A stretch of DNA of 64,000 nucleotides from Nostoc sp. DedSLP01 (GTDB lineage Bacteria > Cyanobacteriota > Cyanobacteriia > Cyanobacteriales > Nostocaceae). The position numbers and the translations under genes are program-made. Positions 9,774 to 18,519 of this stretch are shown here, in pieces. Position 1 is the first letter of the stretch. Each line of letters starts with the position of its first letter. The stretch is taken from assembly GCA_034530875.2 (NCBI GenBank), contig JAVRCJ020000002.1, forward strand, positions 96,001 to 160,000, in the 5' to 3' direction. Under the pieces are notes generated by a model. The model did no database searches, had not been told where the DNA came from, and saw only the letters and a list, made by a program, of their open reading frames with translations.

Positions 9774-10409
9774 CTATTCTTCTTCCTTCTTGTTTTCAAT
9801 ATTAGTTATTTTGGTATTTTCCATCACAATATAGTTTTCCGGTTTTTTTTGTTCTTCTTTCTTCTCTTGTACAACTTGTGTGGCATATATTTCTACATCT
9901 CGCTGGATAATATCTTCTACTTGACCAGCAAAAAAATTAAATGCCTGTTCGTGACTTGTATAATCACGATAAGGGCCTGTCAATTGGGAAAATTGCCATC
10001 CTTGAGTTTTCAAAGATTCCACCGTGCGGCGATAATGCCGCCAGCGTTCTCCATAATGAAAAAATTCTTCAACGGCAGCGCTAATAGCAACGAATTGGCC
10101 GAGAACAAAAGTAGAAACGTTAATTAAATTTTTAACTTCAATATTAGTTCCAGGAATTTTATTCTTTAAATCAGTATTCAGATTGAGAGTAATCAACGCG
10201 GGCAGAATTACGCCACCGATAATGGTTGATAGCCGCCAAAAATAATAGCGATCGCGGGAAAAATTCGCCTTACCTTCCATCCAAAGTACTTGGTCTAACC
10301 AACGCGATCGTAAAAAATGTCTTTGGACATCTCCTAGCTTCATGCCTTCAAACAATTTGTTAAAATCTTCCTTTAAAAATTCTTGATAACTATTCTTTTT
10401 TGCCATCAT
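9774..10409 (-). CDS. SLATT/DUF4231 family two-TM membrane protein
   Basis: RWLDQVLW, two hydrophobic helices (IIGGVILPALITL; FVLGQFVAISAAV), then ERWRHYRRTVESLK. Confidence 0.8.
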   Translation of the reverse strand: MMAKKNSYQEFLKEDFNKLFEGMKLGDVQRHFLRSRWLDQVLWMEGKANFSRDRYYFWRLSTIIGGVILPALITLNLNTDLKNKIPGTNIEVKNLINVSTFVLGQFVAISAAVEEFFHYGERWRHYRRTVESLKTQGWQFSQLTGPYRDYTSHEQAFNFFAGQVEDIIQRDVEIYATQVVQEKKEEQKKPENYIVMENTKITNIENKKEEE

Positions 10410-11162
10410 TTACTCCTTAGCAGAAAGCAAACCCTTAATTATTTCCCCTAAGTTACCAACTTCTTCCTCTATATCGATTAAATTGATATACAGCAATTTA
10501 CCAGATTTGGCTAATTCTTTAGCGCGATCGTCCGTGGCGTTTCCCACCAAAGCACCAGCGAGTATATCTGCGGTTCTACCACTACCAGCAATTACTACAA
10601 CTAACCTACCAGTATTAACACTAGAAAACGCATCTTTAAAGGTAATTTCGCCACCATTTAAAAGTACTGTTACCGAAGGCGCGCCATTAGCTAATACCGT
10701 CGCCACTTCAGATATCCAAGGAGATTCATCGCCCCAATTACTACCAGGAACTAACACAAAATGAGTATGATTTGGCTCTAACGGCGTCAAATCAGCGTCA
10801 GCTGCTAACTGATTTGGTAAAATCGCTTTCTTTTCAGGTGTCACACCAACCAAAGCAAACTTAGCATCTATTTGGGTACGAGCCGCACCCATTAATCGCA
10901 TGACTCCCGCATCCGTACCCCCATCCACGACATAAGCGCCTAAACTTTCAGCGATGGGGGCTAAAACTTCCACGAATAACCGTTGGATGCGGAGAAAGTC
11001 AGCTTCACTGATATTACTCGCACCCCCCACCACCACTAAAACAGGACGCGAACCGCTAAGTCCTATTTCCTCTAAAGCATTTGGCAAATTTGTTTGTTGA
11101 TTAACTCGAATAGCTAATGCTGTTTGTCCGTTGTCAAAGGTAAGTTCCAAACAATTGTTCAT
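10410..11162 (-). CDS. Stand-alone SLOG protein of the TRPM-like (LSDAT_prok) type
   Basis: PVLVVVGGA, VVDGGTDAGVMRLMG, LEPNHTHFVLV, VLLNGG, VVVIAGSGRTAD match TRPM N-terminal SLOG motifs. Confidence 0.85.
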   Translation of the reverse strand: MNNCLELTFDNGQTALAIRVNQQTNLPNALEEIGLSGSRPVLVVVGGASNISEADFLRIQRLFVEVLAPIAESLGAYVVDGGTDAGVMRLMGAARTQIDAKFALVGVTPEKKAILPNQLAADADLTPLEPNHTHFVLVPGSNWGDESPWISEVATVLANGAPSVTVLLNGGEITFKDAFSSVNTGRLVVVIAGSGRTADILAGALVGNATDDRAKELAKSGKLLYINLIDIEEEVGNLGEIIKGLLSAKE

Positions 11163-11834
11163 TTGTCTAAATTACTGACTGCCTAAGTTTTACAGGGTAG
11201 ACCTTTGCAGTCATGTTCGGCAAGCGTTGTATTACGCACACTTGTCGATTAAGCATGTTTCCATAACGTTTTCATCTCGGTTGGAGAAAGTCTGAGATTC
11301 CTTTTGGTTTCCATCGTCTTTGGGGATGAGGTAAGTGGAAAGTTATCTCACTTTTCAAAAAAACTTCAAATGCTTCTGATGTTTCCATGCCCTTTCGAGG
11401 CGATCAATGTAATAAATCAAATCATAAGTTCATTACAACAATTGCTGCAATGATTTAAGCGTTTTTTATATATGGAATAGCAATTGCTGCAAAGTATTAA
11501 ACATTTTTGCAACTAGTGATATAAGTAGAATGCCGTAAAAAATCAAAGTATGTAACGAAAAGTAAAGTTGCCCAAAAAGCTCTTCCCTCCTGCCTTCTGC
11601 CCTCTGCCTCCTGCCTTGCCATAACGACAATTTTCAACACCAACCTACTTATTTTCAAGAAAGACTTAAGCCTTTCTTATATATAAAATAGCCTTTGTTG
11701 CAAAGTATTAAGCTTATATCTAAACTATTGACAAACTTTTAAAAGACTGGTCTTATTTAATAAAAATAAGTTGTTTTCCAAATAAAGAAAATGCATCAAC
11801 TCAATAAAATTACCATCAAATCAATAAGATTACT

Positions 11835-12290
11835 ATGTCTATAACATCTACAATTTACAAAATTAACACTCCATCAGTTGCTCATGAAACAATTGATGGT
11901 GAAGTTGTAGTCATTAACCTAAAAACAGGAGAGTATTATAGTTTATTAAAAGTAGCTGCTGAAATTTGGAATCAAATCGAAAAAGGCATCTCTAAACAAA
12001 ACATCATTGCAGAACTCTCTGAACAATATAATAATATCAACCAAGAAATTCAAAATTATGTAGATAATTTTTTTGAAGAACTACAGCAAGAACATCTCAT
12101 TAAGTTAGAAGGAAATAATATAGATATACCAAAAAATTCCAAGGTTTTTTATACACAAATACAAACAGAAACAATTACAGAAAAAATAGAATTTGAACCA
12201 CCAAAATTAAATAAATTTACTGATATGAGAGAATTACTTTTGCTAGATCCCATCCATGAAGTAAATGAAACCGGCTGGCCAAATACTTAG
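11835..12290 (+). CDS. PqqD-family RiPP recognition element (RRE) with C-terminal leader/precursor-like tail
   Basis: ETIDGEVVVINLKTGEYYSL..VAAEIW...VDNFFEELQQEHLI PqqD pattern; tail FEPPKLNKFTDMRELLLLDPIHEVNETGWPNT. Confidence 0.85.
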   Translation: MSITSTIYKINTPSVAHETIDGEVVVINLKTGEYYSLLKVAAEIWNQIEKGISKQNIIAELSEQYNNINQEIQNYVDNFFEELQQEHLIKLEGNNIDIPKNSKVFYTQIQTETITEKIEFEPPKLNKFTDMRELLLLDPIHEVNETGWPNT

Positions 12291-12411
12291 TAAAATCATG
12301 CAATAGACCTGCCTTGAAAATAGGGACTCTTTACTGGTGACTGGTGACTAGGAAAGAAATATTTTCATTCCTTCGTTGTGAATTGTATTCATGGAGTAAG
12401 AGTGCATAAAT

Positions 12412-12508
12412 ATTAGACCTCTTGCAAAAGTCCCTTAATACCCCACCCCCCAGTTCCTCCCCGCAGGCGGGGTGGGGTTCTTTTTTTGATTTCTGCAAGA
12501 AGTCTAAT
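12412..12508. mobile_element. MITE-like inverted-repeat element with internal GC-rich hairpin
   Basis: ATTAGACCTCTTGCAAAA / TTCTGCAAGAAGTCTAAT termini; CCCCACCCC...GGGGTGGGG inside. Confidence 0.65.
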
Positions 12509-12642
12509 GACTTTTTTCAGCCTAAAGGTATGAATAATCTTCTCTCAGCCTTGATAAAAAACCTCTATATTATTTATGTTCAAATTTAGCAATACTGAAA
12601 TAATGTATTAAACCTTCTAATTTCAAAGGGAAATATTCAAGA

Positions 12643-13326
12643 ATGAATCAAGGATTGGTTAGTGTTATTATTGCTATAAAAAATGGAGAACGGTACTTAG
12701 CAGCAGCTATTGACAGTGTTATAGCTCAAACTTATAAATGCTATGAAATTATCGTGATTGATGGCAACTCTACAGATAATACTGAAAAAATTGCTAAATC
12801 TTATAAGCAAGTTCGCTACGTATCTCAGCCTAGTCAAGGGATTGCTAATGCTTATAACTTAGGAATCGATCTAGCTCAAGGAGAGTTCATTTCCTTTATT
12901 TCCCATGACGATCTGTGGACACCCGATAAATTAACTATTCAAGTAAATTATTTACTAGATCGTCCAGAAATTCAATACACGATCGCTAGAGTCAAATTTT
13001 TTCTTGAGGAAGGATTTTCTATTCCACCTGGATTTAGACCAGAGTTGTTAATAGGCGATCGTATTGCCTATATTATGGAAACTTTGGTCGTGCGAAAAAC
13101 TATATTTGCTCAAATCGGTATGTTAAATCCTGAACTTAGTGTAGCAGAAGATGTTGATTGGTTTGCTAGAGCTAGCGATCGTCAGGTTTTACACATGGCA
13201 ATTCAGAAAGTTTTACTTTATAAACGCGTTCATGATAGCAATCTTTCATTAACATCATCAATTAATAATCAGAATCTACTAAGTATACTTAGACAATCAA
13301 TTAAACGTAAACGTAATTTAATATAG
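12643..13326 (+). CDS. Glycosyltransferase family 2
   Basis: VSVII..KNGERYL, IDGNSTD, SHDDLW (DxD variant), AEDVDW. Confidence 0.9.
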   Translation: MNQGLVSVIIAIKNGERYLAAAIDSVIAQTYKCYEIIVIDGNSTDNTEKIAKSYKQVRYVSQPSQGIANAYNLGIDLAQGEFISFISHDDLWTPDKLTIQVNYLLDRPEIQYTIARVKFFLEEGFSIPPGFRPELLIGDRIAYIMETLVVRKTIFAQIGMLNPELSVAEDVDWFARASDRQVLHMAIQKVLLYKRVHDSNLSLTSSINNQNLLSILRQSIKRKRNLI

Positions 13327-13337
13327 GAAAAATATGG

Positions 13338-14048
13338 ATGGCAAATAATCCATTGGTTAGCGTAATCATTCCAGTGTATAACTGTAATCAATATCTCGCC
13401 CAAGCAATTGAAAGTGTATTATCACAAACCTATCAGCCAATTGAAATTATCGTCGTTGATGATGGTTCAACTGATAATAGTGCTGAAGTTGCAAAGCATT
13501 ATGCTCCACTAATTCGCTACTGTTTCCAATCTAACGCTGGTAGTGGTGCTGCCCGAAATCGTGGCATAGAATTAGCCCAAGGAGAATTCTTTGCTTTTCT
13601 CGATGCAGATGACCTTTGGGTGAAAGATAAATTGATGCATCAAATGGCAGCTTTTAATAATAATAGTGAACTTCATATTGTATTCGGACAAGTCAAACAG
13701 TTTCATAGCCCAGAATTAGATGAGGCTTTTAAAGCCAAAATACACTGTCCTGCTGAATTAATGCCAGGAACTATACCCTCAGCACTACTGATGAAGCGGG
13801 AGGCTTTTTTCCATGTAGGTCGATTTGAAGTTAATTGGCAAGTAGTAGAATTTGCTAGTTGGTATATGCGTGCAAATGAATTAAATATGAATATGCTGAT
13901 TCTGCCAGAATTAGTCACACTCCGACGTTTACACACAACAAATAAAGGGGTTAGCCAACAACGTCAAGAAATTACAGAATATGCGCATATTTTGAAAGCT
14001 TCCCTTGACAGACGTCGGATAGCTAGCGAAAGAAAAGTAGAGGTTTAA
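13338..14048 (+). CDS. Glycosyltransferase family 2
   Basis: VSVIIPVYN, VDDGSTD, ARNRG, FLDADDLW. Confidence 0.92.
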   Translation: MANNPLVSVIIPVYNCNQYLAQAIESVLSQTYQPIEIIVVDDGSTDNSAEVAKHYAPLIRYCFQSNAGSGAARNRGIELAQGEFFAFLDADDLWVKDKLMHQMAAFNNNSELHIVFGQVKQFHSPELDEAFKAKIHCPAELMPGTIPSALLMKREAFFHVGRFEVNWQVVEFASWYMRANELNMNMLILPELVTLRRLHTTNKGVSQQRQEITEYAHILKASLDRRRIASERKVEV

Positions 14049-14300
14049 TATATTCAAATAAAATCTGGATTATTCGAATAATATTGAGGATTTGACTACA
14101 AAAGTCAAGATTAAATTGGAAAAATGAGCAAAATTATAGAAGAAAAAATTTAATTTATGTATTAAGTCTAAAAAAAGACTGAAAATAAATTTTATAAATG
14201 AAAAATTGAATAAGAATTAATGTTTTTTATAACTAAATAAGAATTATTACTAATCACATATAAAATCAAATTCCATGATAAATAAAGTGAATTAAAACAC

Positions 14301-15185
14301 ATGAAATCTGAGAAAAAACCTAACTTAGATTTACCAACTCCTCAGCAAAAATTACTTTTGCAAGCCTCTCTTCTTCATGGTCAAAATGCGCTGAATGCTT
14401 GGCAATCGTGGAGTGAAATTGTTGATATTGAAAAGTTAGATTCAGAATCATATAATTTGTTGTGTTTACTTTATCGGAATTTGTCTGTACACAAAATACA
14501 ACACTCAAAAATAACAATAATTAAAGGTATTTACCGCCGTACATGGTATGCTAACCAACTCCTATTTAGCAAAATTCAACCTATTTTACAGACTTTTTAT
14601 GAGACTGGAATTAAAATACTGATGCTTGCAGATATTGCTTTGATTAGCAATTATTACCAAGATTACGGTCACCGACCAGTGTATGCCATAGATTTGTTTA
14701 TACCTTCATTAGATATTGATAAAGCAATTAAGCTGTTGGCAAATTTAGGCTGGAAAAAAGTCACATCAGAAAAACTTGATTTTGAATTGCAGGATGAATT
14801 CCCACAATTACTTTTTATTCCCCGTGGTATCTTCTGGGCTGAACCTCAAGAAAAGACCGATAATCAACTTTGGAATTATGCAATTTCCTGCAAAATTAGT
14901 AATATTTCTACTCTAGCTCTGAGCCATACCGATCAATTATTATATATCTGCTTACGGGCGTTTCCAACGAATCAGTTGCAAGAAATTCGTTGGCTAGCTG
15001 ATGCTATGATTATTCTTCAAGCTTATGGAAATGAAATTGATTGGAGCAGATTAGTTACCCAAGCACAAAGGTATCAGTTAGTTTTACCATTAAAAAATAT
15101 GCTGACTATCCTAGAAGAAATTTTTAATTTTTTAATACCTAACTGGGTTTTAGCAAGTTTAAATAAAACGCCAAATTGTCCTTGA
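14301..15185 (+). CDS. Nucleotidyltransferase-family protein (NTP_transf_5-like), degenerate catalytic motif
   Basis: KGIYRRTWYAN, YYQDYGHRPVYAIDLFI (cf. R.m.D.D), DQLLYIC, IRWLADA, IDWSRL. Confidence 0.75.
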   Translation: MKSEKKPNLDLPTPQQKLLLQASLLHGQNALNAWQSWSEIVDIEKLDSESYNLLCLLYRNLSVHKIQHSKITIIKGIYRRTWYANQLLFSKIQPILQTFYETGIKILMLADIALISNYYQDYGHRPVYAIDLFIPSLDIDKAIKLLANLGWKKVTSEKLDFELQDEFPQLLFIPRGIFWAEPQEKTDNQLWNYAISCKISNISTLALSHTDQLLYICLRAFPTNQLQEIRWLADAMIILQAYGNEIDWSRLVTQAQRYQLVLPLKNMLTILEEIFNFLIPNWVLASLNKTPNCP

Positions 15186-15299
15186 AATTTGTTATTAAAT
15201 CAAATTAAACCTGAAAAAAGTCTAATTATTCAAATTTCCTTAATAAAAACCCAAATAAAGTTAAATTAATTTCTAATTAATACCAACCAAGGTTAACTA

Positions 15300-16718
15300 A
15301 TGAATCAAGAATCATTTGACAATACAAATTTAGCAGAAGCTAAATGTAAATTGGCTAATATATGGCAAGTGAAGGGGAGAATAGAATTAGCAACTGCTGG
15401 TTATCAAGAAGCTTTACGATTACAACCAGACTATATACCAGCGTATGAATCTTTGGCTAATTTAAGCATCCATCAAAACCGAATGAATGAAGCAATTCAA
15501 TATTATGAAAAAGCTTTATCTATAAATTTTGAGGCTACAGATTTATCTGTTTATTATATATATCTTGGATTATCATTAAAAATAATTAGACAGGAAGATA
15601 TAGAAATCTACAATTCAGATTTTTTGCAAGCTTACTATATCAAGGATAATCCAAATGGAAAAATAAATTTATCTAGCCAGAAGGAATTTGATTTTCATAG
15701 AAGTGGTTGGAATTTTGCACTCAATGCTTTAAAACCTTTGCATAATAGTCAAGGTATTTTGTTTGATGGATTTATTGAGAATAATTTTGTCTGGGATTAC
15801 GGAATTGCTAATGAAATATCTCCTTTAATTGTGGAAAAAATGAAACGAGATGGAGTATTTAATATCCTGAAAAATAAGTTTGCATTAGAAAAAAAACTAA
15901 TTGTACCTTATACCCAACCTTGGGCAGGTTTCATTCATAATCCACAAGAAATGCCAACTTGGCTTTATTATGAATCTTCTCCTCAAAAACTTTTTACTAA
16001 AGATATATGGAAGAAAAGTTTATATTCTTGCATTGGTCTATTTGCATTTTCAGAATACCATGCTCAATGGTTACGAGAACAAACAGGAAAAATAGTTTCT
16101 ACTTTAATCCATCCAACAGAAATACCAGAAATACAATTCAATTTTCATAAATTTTTAGAGAATCCTGAGAAAAAAGTTGTGCAGATTGGTTGGTGGTTAA
16201 GAAAGCTAAGTGCAATTTATCAGTTACCTATTGCTAAAAATAATGTCTTAAACTTTGAAAAACTAAGATTAATTCCTATGTATTGTGACAATGCAGATGA
16301 ACAGCAAGAAGAAATCATCGCCAAGGAAATTAAGATTAATAATTTAAAAATTGAACCTGCTTTTTCAAGTAATACTAAAGAAATAAAGCATATATCAAAT
16401 ACTGAATACGATATACTCTTGTCAGAAAATATAGCGTTTATGGAATTATATGACTCTAGTGTAAATAACGCAGTTATTGAATGTATTGCTAGAGGAACTC
16501 CACTTTTAATTAATCCTTTACCCGCAGTAGTAGAATATCTTGGGAAAGATTATCCTATGTACTTTACTAGTTTATCAGAAGCTGCAAAAAAAGCTGTGGA
16601 TACTTCATTGATTTTAGATACTCATAATTATTTAATAAATTGTGAAACCAGAAATAAGTTATCTCAAGAGTATTTTTTGAAAAGCTTTGAGGAAAGTGAA
16701 GTCTATCAATTAATTTAA
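15300..16718 (+). CDS. TPR protein with C-terminal GT-B-like domain of unknown function
   Basis: Two N-terminal TPRs (YQEALRLQPD, YEKALSIN); C-terminal NNAVIECIARGTPLLINPLPAVVEYLG resembles the GT4 ExxAxGxP motif. Confidence 0.7.
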   Translation: MNQESFDNTNLAEAKCKLANIWQVKGRIELATAGYQEALRLQPDYIPAYESLANLSIHQNRMNEAIQYYEKALSINFEATDLSVYYIYLGLSLKIIRQEDIEIYNSDFLQAYYIKDNPNGKINLSSQKEFDFHRSGWNFALNALKPLHNSQGILFDGFIENNFVWDYGIANEISPLIVEKMKRDGVFNILKNKFALEKKLIVPYTQPWAGFIHNPQEMPTWLYYESSPQKLFTKDIWKKSLYSCIGLFAFSEYHAQWLREQTGKIVSTLIHPTEIPEIQFNFHKFLENPEKKVVQIGWWLRKLSAIYQLPIAKNNVLNFEKLRLIPMYCDNADEQQEEIIAKEIKINNLKIEPAFSSNTKEIKHISNTEYDILLSENIAFMELYDSSVNNAVIECIARGTPLLINPLPAVVEYLGKDYPMYFTSLSEAAKKAVDTSLILDTHNYLINCETRNKLSQEYFLKSFEESEVYQLI

Positions 16719-16784: not shown

Positions 16785-17540
16785 ATGCTCAAAGTCACAT
16801 TATCAATTAGTGTTATTCTTCCGGTTTATAACGGAGAGAGGTTTTTAGTGCAGGCGATTGAGAATATTCAAGGGCAAAATTATCAGCCCCTGGAAATTAT
16901 TGTTGTCGATGATGGTTCTACCGATCGCACCGCCGAAATTGCCAAAGAATTTGAGGACAACATTCACTATATCTATCAACCCAATCAAGGCCCTTCCTCT
17001 GCTCGCAATCGCGGAATCAAAAGCGCGCGAGGAGAAGCGATCGCTTTTCTCGATGTTGACGATCTATGGGAAGAGGGAGTATTGGCCGAATTCGCTGATT
17101 ATTTAGTAGCTAATCCCGAAGTGGATATCGTTCAGGGATTAATTCAGCAAATGCAGATAGAGAATCTTCCCTCGGAAAATGATTCTTACCAATTCAAACC
17201 TGTCTTTCAACCTTATCAGTTTATTAATCTGGGGAGTGCTATCTACCGTCGATCGGTGTTCGATCGAGTGGGTTTACTCGACCCCAAGCTACATGATAAT
17301 GAAGATACCGATTGGTTTATGCGCGCTTGGGAAAACGATATTTGTAAAGTTGTTATACCTAAACTTATGTTGTATTACCGAAAACACGATCGCAATATGA
17401 CCCTACACCAAAAAGATTTAGTACATTTCGGAATGCTCAAAATCTACAAGCGTCGCATCGATCGTATGCGGGCGCAGGGGAAAGAAAAACATACTTCCTC
17501 CGTATCCTGGTATAGCTATTATGGTAAAACGCCGGAGTGA
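16785..17540 (+). CDS. Glycosyltransferase family 2
   Basis: ISVILPVYN, VDDGSTD, ARNRG, FLDVDDLW, NEDTDW. Confidence 0.92.
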   Translation: MLKVTLSISVILPVYNGERFLVQAIENIQGQNYQPLEIIVVDDGSTDRTAEIAKEFEDNIHYIYQPNQGPSSARNRGIKSARGEAIAFLDVDDLWEEGVLAEFADYLVANPEVDIVQGLIQQMQIENLPSENDSYQFKPVFQPYQFINLGSAIYRRSVFDRVGLLDPKLHDNEDTDWFMRAWENDICKVVIPKLMLYYRKHDRNMTLHQKDLVHFGMLKIYKRRIDRMRAQGKEKHTSSVSWYSYYGKTPE

Positions 17541-17694: not shown

Positions 17695-18519
17695 TTATCT
17701 AGGCAAGCGGTCAAAATCTTGCGGATTTATTTTATCAACATATTTTGAAATAATATCTCCAATCCTGTTTTCAAATTTTATGCCAGAATCCGAAGTGAAA
17801 CTTTGCGGCTCCCACCATACGTAGTTATCAGACGGAAAAGGGAGTGGGTAATAGTCGATTTCTTTCTGATAAATCTCTACTGGGTAAAAGTCAGACATCA
17901 CAATTTGTCCTGGAAAAAAAGTGTTAAGCGTGACTATTTTGTAGGTTAGTTGAGGAAAGACACATTTGATGACCTGATTCAAGCGACTTGGATATGTATT
18001 GTGTTCACAGACAAACAAAATATTATCGTCTGCAATATACCGATAGAAATTAGCAATACGCGCCCTATATAGCTCTATTAATTTGGCAAAATTGTTGGCT
18101 GCGTATAGCTCGTGTTTGCCATCTATTGATTCGTGACGAAACCTCACATTGTATTTAGTATGCTCAATGTAATTATCCTCGGTCACTATCAGGAAATCAG
18201 AGTTACAATAATCCTTAAAGCTTGACTTAATAATTTCACACAGACCATCATAATGATGCAAAGATAAATCAAAAGGTAATGTCAGTTCCCCTTGAGCTTT
18301 TGTCTGTTTATATCCTTGGCGTGTAAGTATGGTGCGTGGAAGACAGCTATATCCTAAAGAAATTATATGGTTATAATTTACTTGTCTCACTATTGCTCTG
18401 TGTGAATATATTAGTGATTTTTTGAACGGCAGGTAATTATCAGTATTTAATTTAAACCTGTACTTATAAAAAGCAGCATAACTTCCTGGAATATTACAAC
18501 AATTTCGCACTTTGGGCAA
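17695..18519 (-). CDS. DUF1796-like putative papain-like cysteine peptidase (start uncertain)
   Basis: IISLGYSCLP...LPFD...RFRHE...YRARIANF pattern. Confidence 0.65.
   Translation of the reverse strand: MPKVRNCCNIPGSYAAFYKYRFKLNTDNYLPFKKSLIYSHRAIVRQVNYNHIISLGYSCLPRTILTRQGYKQTKAQGELTLPFDLSLHHYDGLCEIIKSSFKDYCNSDFLIVTEDNYIEHTKYNVRFRHESIDGKHELYAANNFAKLIELYRARIANFYRYIADDNILFVCEHNTYPSRLNQVIKCVFPQLTYKIVTLNTFFPGQIVMSDFYPVEIYQKEIDYYPLPFPSDNYVWWEPQSFTSDSGIKFENRIGDIISKYVDKINPQDFDRLPR

Follow-up and report, generated by a model that had tools for sequence, protein, structure and literature searches.

The 151-aa protein encoded at 11835-12290 (+) of the window, the 64,000-nucleotide stretch of Nostoc sp. 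DedSLP01 DNA analyzed here, is a lasso-type RRE that is joined by a variable linker to a C-terminal tail of its own. The tail is real and conserved, more so than the RRE itself; it is fused to the RRE in every intact locus that was read, and it co-occurs with an HprK-like kinase and with one ortholog group of GT2 glycosyltransferases, GT2-0. The FxxPxL segment that begins the tail very probably docks in the RRE groove in the register of a lasso leader, judging from structural models, and either docking in cis or a domain-swapped dimer would fit. Tentatively, we favor a self-leadered and uncleaved RRE, the tail of which would be the docking site of the cassette enzymes and probably also their acceptor.

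The RRE-tail protein of Nostoc sp. DedSLP01

The protein is composed of the following parts.
11835-12290, + strand: RRE-tail ORF, 151 aa
11835..12119, + strand: RRE (PqqD family, lasso-B1 type), residues 1-95, from PF05402, NCBIfam and a model match to TbiB1
12120..12191, + strand: variable linker, predicted to be disordered (conservation 0.18; pLDDT < 50 at 99-114)
12192..12221, + strand: self-leader motif F120-x-x-P123-x-L125 with strand 126-128, which is predicted to occupy the leader groove of the RRE (pLDDT 87, DSSP, covariation 38-126)
12222..12281, + strand: near-invariant distal tail D130-P149, likely an enzyme docking site or acceptor (conservation 0.85-0.90; pLDDT 51-58 in the monomer model)

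Residues 23-89 match PF05402 (PqqD) with an E value of 2.4e-14. The best NCBIfam match of the RRE is lasso_PqqD_Bac at 54.9 bits, which does not reach the cutoff of 80, and the RRE model superimposes on TbiB1 (5v1v) with a Z score of 14.2 and an rmsd of 2.1 over 88 aligned residues. Base 12192 belongs to the codon of F120, and residues 120-151 agree with the earlier reading, including the two Thr, two Asn and N-E-T sequon of D138-T151, which are confirmed in the translation. When the lasso leader pattern is started at F120, its Thr position falls on L135, which would put the first core residue at L137 instead of D138. The six-residue motif by itself is not beyond chance: [FYW]xxPx[LIVFA] turns up 11.6% of the time when residues 96-151 are shuffled, and 7.5% of the 5,555 ORFs of the Nostoc genome have it within their last 56 aa. 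Its conservation is beyond chance, and because the motif alone is common, the case rests on the homologs.

The Nostoc genome yielded no further copy of the tail. The only other PqqD of the genome lies in a pqqB-C-D-E-like operon on contig C13 (L104:5625-8885); the RRE-tail ORF is not within pqqBCDE, the genuine pqqBCDE set being on that other contig. Intergenic repeats flank the RRE gene at about 12291-12390 and at 11570-11610 of the window, with about 20 and more than 100 BLAST matches in the genome.

Conservation of the tail and its fusion to the RRE

The original prediction of a conserved tail behind a PqqD domain and a variable linker is borne out by an alignment of 120 of the 132 homologs, in which the top residue has a mean frequency of 0.53 over the RRE and 0.18 over the linker, rising to 0.63 at residues 120-128, 0.85 at 129-137 and 0.90 at 138-149. 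F120 is kept in 102, P123 in 116 and L125 in 110 of the 120 homologs, and D130, M131, L134-L137, D138, P139, I140, H141, V143, G147, W148 and P149 are each kept in 112-120 of them. The linker span, residues 89-119, is 22-31 aa long in 90% of homologs. At 50% identity, 2,981 clusters are matched by the tail profile; scanning GTDB for the tail pattern, with 567 of 579 stretches confirmed, places the tail in at least a dozen phyla by record title.

Sets picked by the tail pattern lean toward the tail and are circular for residues 134-141, so an RRE-only test that is independent of the tail was run; the RRE-only, genus and family searches are not circular, or less so. Among 251 genomes of the family, 21 were matched by the RRE-only search, and in each of these the tail is encoded by the ORF of the RRE. 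A tail-first scan of metagenomes, in which contigs were ranked by the tail alone, found a full RRE in frame with 78 of the 79 tails parsed; the remaining tail is cut by the contig end, and one contig of 80 was unparsed. No stand-alone tail copy occurs among the 79 parsed contigs. The best 150 tail representatives include 106 with a full RRE, the other 44 being mostly N-terminally cut pieces, and about ten tail-only proteins of 46-66 aa without genomic context are found among the same 150. A genus search matched 4 of 126 genomes, and of the three that were read (G141 was left out) two are without the distal tail and one has it. The RRE-only protein search was weak, giving three matches, one of them tail-less. 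No relatives were found in viral contigs, and no RNA holder is listed. In one 164-aa protein, P0144, the tail follows an N-terminus that looks HAD-like by eye instead of an RRE; this protein may be an assembly chimera.

The earlier remark that no separate precursor ORF is seen nearby also holds, with 78 of 79 tails fused, no such ORF recurrent in the homologous loci, and no intergenic small ORF with a leader-like motif in the window within 10 kb of the RRE gene. Leader-like small ORFs are found in 20 of 81 loci and are mutually unrelated by eye.

Predicted docking of the tail in its own leader groove

AlphaFold2 was run on 43 sequences, and docking was read from DSSP and from the pLDDT of the model. 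Residues 121-130 emerge from the disordered linker with a pLDDT of 87, and DSSP assigns residues 126-128 to a strand, 65 and 118 to isolated bridges, and 131-135 to a short helix, with low confidence beyond. In the LppB-LppA complex, the residue two positions ahead of the LppA aromatic forms a bond to the backbone next to the conserved Tyr in the alpha2-alpha3 loop; in PbaB1-PbaA, the sheet is extended by the three residues that come after the motif Leu of PbaA (PMC13381572). Mapping onto the solved complexes with F120 set as the leader aromatic pairs 118 with 65-66 and 126-128 with about 34-36, and the predicted secondary structure at 121-130 is that of the solved leader complexes.

In LppB, D70 binds the hydroxyl of the leader Tyr (PMC13381572). 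It maps to RRE position 75, which is likewise Asp in TbiB1 and TfuB1 and is Asp in only 1 of 120 and 1 of 81 homologs of the RRE-tail protein. The loss of the Tyr-binding Asp fits the presence of Phe instead of Tyr in the tail motif.

Covariation also fits the predicted docking. By corrected mutual information over 303 sequences, 38-126 scores highest among 6,796 pairs (z 3.9), and where both positions are charged, an acidic 38 is accompanied by a basic 126 in 42 of 43 sequences and a basic 38 by an acidic 126 in all 24. After thinning to <50% RRE identity the charge swap stands at 11:1 versus 0:12 (p 5e-6), the best of 177 pairs. Replication in 66 new sequences was partial, with a basic 38 and an acidic 126 in 15 of 15 and an acid at both positions in 4 of 20. 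A tree-based independent-pairs test of the swap had 2 and 9 pairs, gave p = 1, and is underpowered. The proposal that FEPPKL docks on its own RRE is supported, as a prediction, by the modeled strand, its pLDDT, and this covariation.

Residues of the distal tail

The Thr, Asn and sequon of D138-T151 had been put forward as sugar acceptors of a core that is cleaved off at DPIH. The N-E-T sequon is present in 7 of 118, 2 of 80, 0 of 143 and 1 of 79 homologs in four sets, and by these counts is a lineage accident. The position of N144 is normally Asp (D144 in 86 of 120), and T146 and T151 are not conserved. Because N144, T146 and T151 are not conserved, none of them can be the acceptor, and both N-glycosylation at the sequon and O-glycosylation at T146/T151 are ruled out by conservation. 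Between 8 and 29% of homologs have no Ser or Thr at all from D138 to the C terminus (11/118, 8/80, 26/143 and 23/79), and the closest homolog, P0002, is one of them. An acidic residue, E or D, is found at 145 in 115 of 120.

The best-kept hydroxyl is T/S129 (99/120, 77/81, 133/143 and 72/79), where Thr dominates. The tail has no invariant hydroxyl residue and no conserved Ser, and four GTDB loci with D, N or A at 129 have intact kinases. The position just before a helix favors S, T, D or N, and residue 129 directly precedes the predicted helix. Judged by conservation, the candidate acceptors would be T/S129, conserved at about 90%, or the invariant non-hydroxyl residues H141, D138 and D130.

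The position of the penultimate leader Thr (-2) is Leu (L135) in 117 of 120 homologs. No peptidase or cyclase family is present in 29 cluster representatives plus 95 of 130 singleton neighbors, and no signal-peptidase (SpI-like) family is present among the scanned neighbors. The B2 peptidase PF13471 was not found in the Nostoc genome, which is 99.78% complete; across 50 tail genomes a B2 family gene exists somewhere in 27, not among the scanned neighbors, and was not found in 23. With Leu at the Thr(-2) position and no recurring peptidase, cleavage at DPIH is without support. Of the single-chain RRE-leader-core architecture first proposed, the RRE-leader fusion is supported and the cleaved, glycosylated core is not, the supposed core being the least variable part of the protein.

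About 9.3 kb upstream of one cassette, at L001:1-719, there is a lasso B2 gene together with a discrete RRE that has no tail, recalling LPP/lasso co-location. A DUF1796 papain-like gene at 17695-18519 (-) of the window faces the cassette end; as a leader peptidase of the family it was rejected, being a singleton among 81 loci.

The Nostoc cassette and its partners across genomes

Downstream of the RRE-tail gene the window holds the following features.
12459..12487, + strand: terminator-like hairpin with a T run, separating the RRE gene from the first GT2 (by consensus scan only, with 2 hits versus 0.9 expected)
12643..13326, + strand: GT2 glycosyltransferase, cassette subfamily 1 (PF00535; subfamily in 28/48 long loci)
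13338..14048, + strand: GT2 glycosyltransferase GT2-0, the ortholog group that tracks the tail (PF00535; 37/48 long loci)
14301..15185, + strand: PF14907 nucleotidyltransferase of 294 aa (family about 340-420) with A-x-D for D-x-D, likely inactive
15300..16718, + strand: TPR protein, of which a 390-aa domain belongs to no Pfam family (cluster in 16/81 loci)
16785..17540, + strand: GT2 glycosyltransferase, subfamily 2, kept beside tail-less RREs

Of 80 GTDB loci, 66 encode the HprK-like kinase, 65 a GT2, 52 a PF14907 protein and 28 an ABC protein; the 48 long loci, with at least 8 kb downstream, give corresponding counts of 42, 44, 38 and 22. The accessory neighbor genes encode variable glycan enzymes, and no other conserved acceptor gene was found in the 80 loci. 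Of 14 genomes without a kinase in the locus, nine have a kinase elsewhere. The kinase is modeled as a PEPCK fold (TM about 0.55), and its His, Walker A and DD are intact in 63 of 64 sequences. D-x-D is present in 36 of 57 PF14907 proteins, and those without it are mostly cyanobacterial.

In the family draw, 20 of the 21 tail genomes encode the kinase and 20 of 21 a GT2-0 ortholog, the exception for GT2-0 being 86% complete, and neither was found in the other 230 genomes. For these counts only 8-11 candidates were scored in each genome, and related genomes are not independent of one another. Of 18 genomes checked outside the family, 9 have a clear GT2-0 and eight a borderline one, and in one it was not found.

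Nostoc sp. DedSLP01 is the sole tail genome of the 21 without a kinase. No HprK-like kinase was found in its genome (99.78% complete), and tblastn detected no kinase remnant in 11201-15400. The PF14907 enzyme at 14301-15185 is likely degenerate, judging from its sequence. With the kinase not found and the nucleotidyltransferase apparently dead, only a GT2 step could remain here.

The RREs of genomes G012 and G036 are sisters of the Nostoc copy (clade 99/95, in a tree of which the mis-cut row newL099 is ignored) and end a few residues after the docking motif, the distal tail having been lost, probably in one event; kinase, PF14907 and GT2-0 were not found in these two genomes. The TPR protein encoded at 15300-16718 (+) is kept at 69% identity near these tail-less RREs. 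Two Ignavibacteria genomes (MAGs of unstated completeness) keep the tail with 29 of 30 residues identical and 10 synonymous changes, so that it is apparently under selection, as far as sequence can tell; this pair has GT2-0 (54% identity), and neither kinase nor PF14907 was found. Taken together, the Nostoc copy, its tail-less sisters and the Ignavibacteria offer the lead, and only the lead, that the distal tail follows GT2-0 and not the kinase.

Comparison with known systems

The closest known systems are the LPP and pseudomycoidin tailoring sets, and on the features tested the RRE-tail protein belongs neither to the lasso nor to the LPP class. LPP (lppAKBSDN, Bacillota; Popov et al. 2026, PMC13381572) shares a cyclase-free lasso-type RRE, an HprK-like kinase and an NTP transferase beside glycosyltransferase genes, and also an aromatic-x-x-P-x-aliphatic motif in the RRE groove, which here is predicted. 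LPP has a discrete RRE, a separate precursor with a variable C terminus, an SpI peptidase and a phospho-Ser. In the RRE-tail family, by contrast, the motif is fused C-terminally to the RRE (21/21, 78/79), the following segment is near-invariant, no peptidase recurs, and there is no conserved Ser. No separate precursor with the LPP leader YxxPxVLxHQxIxFETxxS was found, no small ORF being recurrent near the gene. The RRE-tail family ranges over at least a dozen phyla by record titles, as against the Bacillota of LPP. The HprK-like kinase of LPP is present in 20 of 21 tail genomes and was not found in the Nostoc genome, and the Nostoc counterpart of the LPP NTP transferase, at 14301-15185, is short and without the first Asp of D-x-D.

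The pseudomycoidin and paeninodin type of lasso cluster (PsmB1/PsmK/PsmN, PadeK, ThcoK) shares a B1-type RRE, an HprK-like kinase with His-Lys-Asp-Asp, and a nucleotidyltransferase that is needed there for hexosylation of the phosphate (PMC6993621, PMC9266682). The RRE-tail family differs in having no linked cyclase, B2 or separate precursor and no C-terminal Ser, in having several true GT2s as core members, and in that many of its cyanobacterial nucleotidyltransferases, the Nostoc copy included, are without D-x-D.

The solved lasso B1-leader complexes of TbiB1 (5v1u, 5v1v), TfuB1 (6jx3), PbaB1 (9x90) and LppB (9x8z) have the same fold as the RRE (Z 12-14) and belong to the same sequence family (E 7e-18 to 3e-5). 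In all four the leader is a separate chain, whereas the ligand of the RRE-tail protein is predicted to be in the same chain. Compared with a lasso system, the B1-type RRE is present, though below the NCBIfam lasso_PqqD cutoffs. Of the lasso leader [Y/W]xxPx[L/V/I/A/F/Y], the P and L are conserved, position 1 is Phe in 102 of 120 and Tyr or Trp in 13 of 120, and docking is predicted; the Thr of leader -2 is replaced by Leu, and no B2 peptidase was found in the Nostoc genome.

A model for the role of the tail

In the model that we tentatively prefer, FxxPxL of the conserved 30-residue tail, tethered by the variable linker to the lasso-type RRE, would occupy the protein's own leader groove, and the near-invariant segment behind it would be held out, uncleaved, as a docking site for the kinase and GT2. 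The HprK/PEPCK-fold kinase would phosphorylate the held peptide, as LppK, PadeK and PsmK do theirs, the first phosphate or sugar being placed on T/S129 or on an invariant His or Asp. The PF14907 enzyme would cap the phosphate with a sugar, by analogy with PsmN, the double Asp mutant of which is inactive (PMC6993621/PMC9266682). Variable GT2, GT4, methyl- and sulfotransferases would extend the product, making the protein a primer for a phospho-glycan. We infer the kinase, capping and extension steps by analogy.

The tail is taken to be the acceptor because the characterized related kinases LppK, PadeK and PsmK modify a precursor peptide (PMC13381572, PMC6993621, PMC9266682) and because no other peptide candidate was found. 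Against its being the acceptor are the lack of an invariant hydroxyl, the Thr at 129, given that LppK rejected Thr in place of Ser (PMC13381572), the Ignavibacteria that keep the tail with neither kinase nor PF14907 found, and the lack of precedent for His or Asp acceptors among the characterized relatives considered.

Ranking close behind is the possibility that the tail is a permanent adaptor, docked and never modified, that binds, switches on or organizes the kinase and GT2 while another acceptor (a sugar, a lipid carrier or an unrelated protein) is decorated. Its invariant residues, none of them Ser or Thr, are mostly hydrophobic or structural (M131, L134-L137, P139, I140, V143, G147, W148, P149), as in a binding motif. 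The LppA leader beyond the docked strand is off the RRE and has been suggested to bind the modifying enzymes (PMC13381572), and B1 proteins boost tailoring enzymes (PMC9266682). The neighboring enzymes are of polysaccharide type, with an ABC exporter in only 22 of 48 long loci. An adaptor would leave the 80 loci without a conserved acceptor gene and the cassette kinase unlike its characterized counterparts, which modify the precursor peptide. Nor does the conservation of the tail disqualify it as a modified core, strongly conserved cores being known in cofactor-type RiPPs such as PQQ and mycofactocin.

It is unlikely that the tail is an auto-inhibitory pseudo-leader that guards the groove until an unlinked precursor with a better motif displaces it. 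Phe may bind more weakly than Tyr or Trp, the tail-less sisters keep the docking motif and drop the rest, and the roughly ten tail-only proteins of 46-66 aa among the best 150 representatives would suit such a precursor. Since LppB is insoluble without its leader (PMC13381572), the bound motif may simply stabilize the fold. A guard of the groove would leave unexplained why residues 130-149, which lie outside it, are the most conserved; the pocket lacks the Tyr-binding Asp and so matches its own Phe, no small ORF recurs nearby, and no stand-alone tail is seen in the 79 parsed contigs.

Very unlikely is a single-chain leader-core precursor that is cut near D138 to release a core glycosylated on Thr or Asn, for which the motif with its predicted docking, the B2 genes somewhere in 27 of 50 tail genomes, and the conserved acidic 144-145, which would fall at core positions 7-9 where lasso rings close (PMC9266682), can be cited, against the rare sequon, the homologs with no Ser or Thr after D138, the Leu at Thr(-2), the lack of B2 in the Nostoc genome and 23 of 50 tail genomes, and the lack of a peptidase or cyclase among the scanned neighbors.

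Novelty and implications

A discrete RRE is taken as a sign of a nearby separate precursor, and many clusters are filed as 'precursor not found'; among PF05402 proteins, 21% exceed the length of a discrete RRE and have no other domain (PMC12710340). The RRE-tail family represents a natural case in which the RRE apparently supplies its own leader, which explains the missing precursor and allows the cassette to be tested directly with a single soluble protein. Should the tail prove to be the acceptor, many orphan kinases, PF14907 enzymes and GT2s would gain their first substrate; should it prove to be an adaptor, the protein would be a natural always-loaded RRE, useful for engineering. The Nostoc window copy is reduced and is a poor bench model. 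The most far-reaching form of our model is doubtful: a widespread peptide-modifying class in which precursor and recognition element are one never-cleaved chain, an invariant His or Asp, and not a Ser or Thr, is primed by an HprK/PEPCK-fold kinase and a conserved GT2, and a phospho-glycan is then built by interchangeable transferases, a glycan protein primer derived from RiPP machinery.

A literature search, with subscription journals mostly outside its coverage, turned up no account of an RRE that bears a C-terminal leader of its own, and the tail motif searched as text returned 0 papers. The data sets of PMC7470986, PMC12710340 and PMC13381572 may list such proteins.

Variants of the cassette and a neighboring gene pair

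Kinase-GT2 fusions of about 600 aa, tying both activities, are encoded in seven loci (L011, L027, L039, L054, L058, L075, L076). In six cyanobacterial loci (L010, L012, L017, L019, L026, L051) a PF14907 protein without D-x-D directly follows the RRE and a second PF14907 is encoded elsewhere in the locus; the former are possible pseudo-enzyme scaffolds. The cassette can be split, as in genome G050, where the RRE-tail gene and two GT2s are on one contig and two kinase copies on another (C34, C128). Upstream of the RRE-tail gene, at 9774-11162 (-) of the window, a SLOG (LSDAT_prok) gene followed by a DUF4231/SLATT two-helix effector gene looks like a nucleotide-signaling defense pair.
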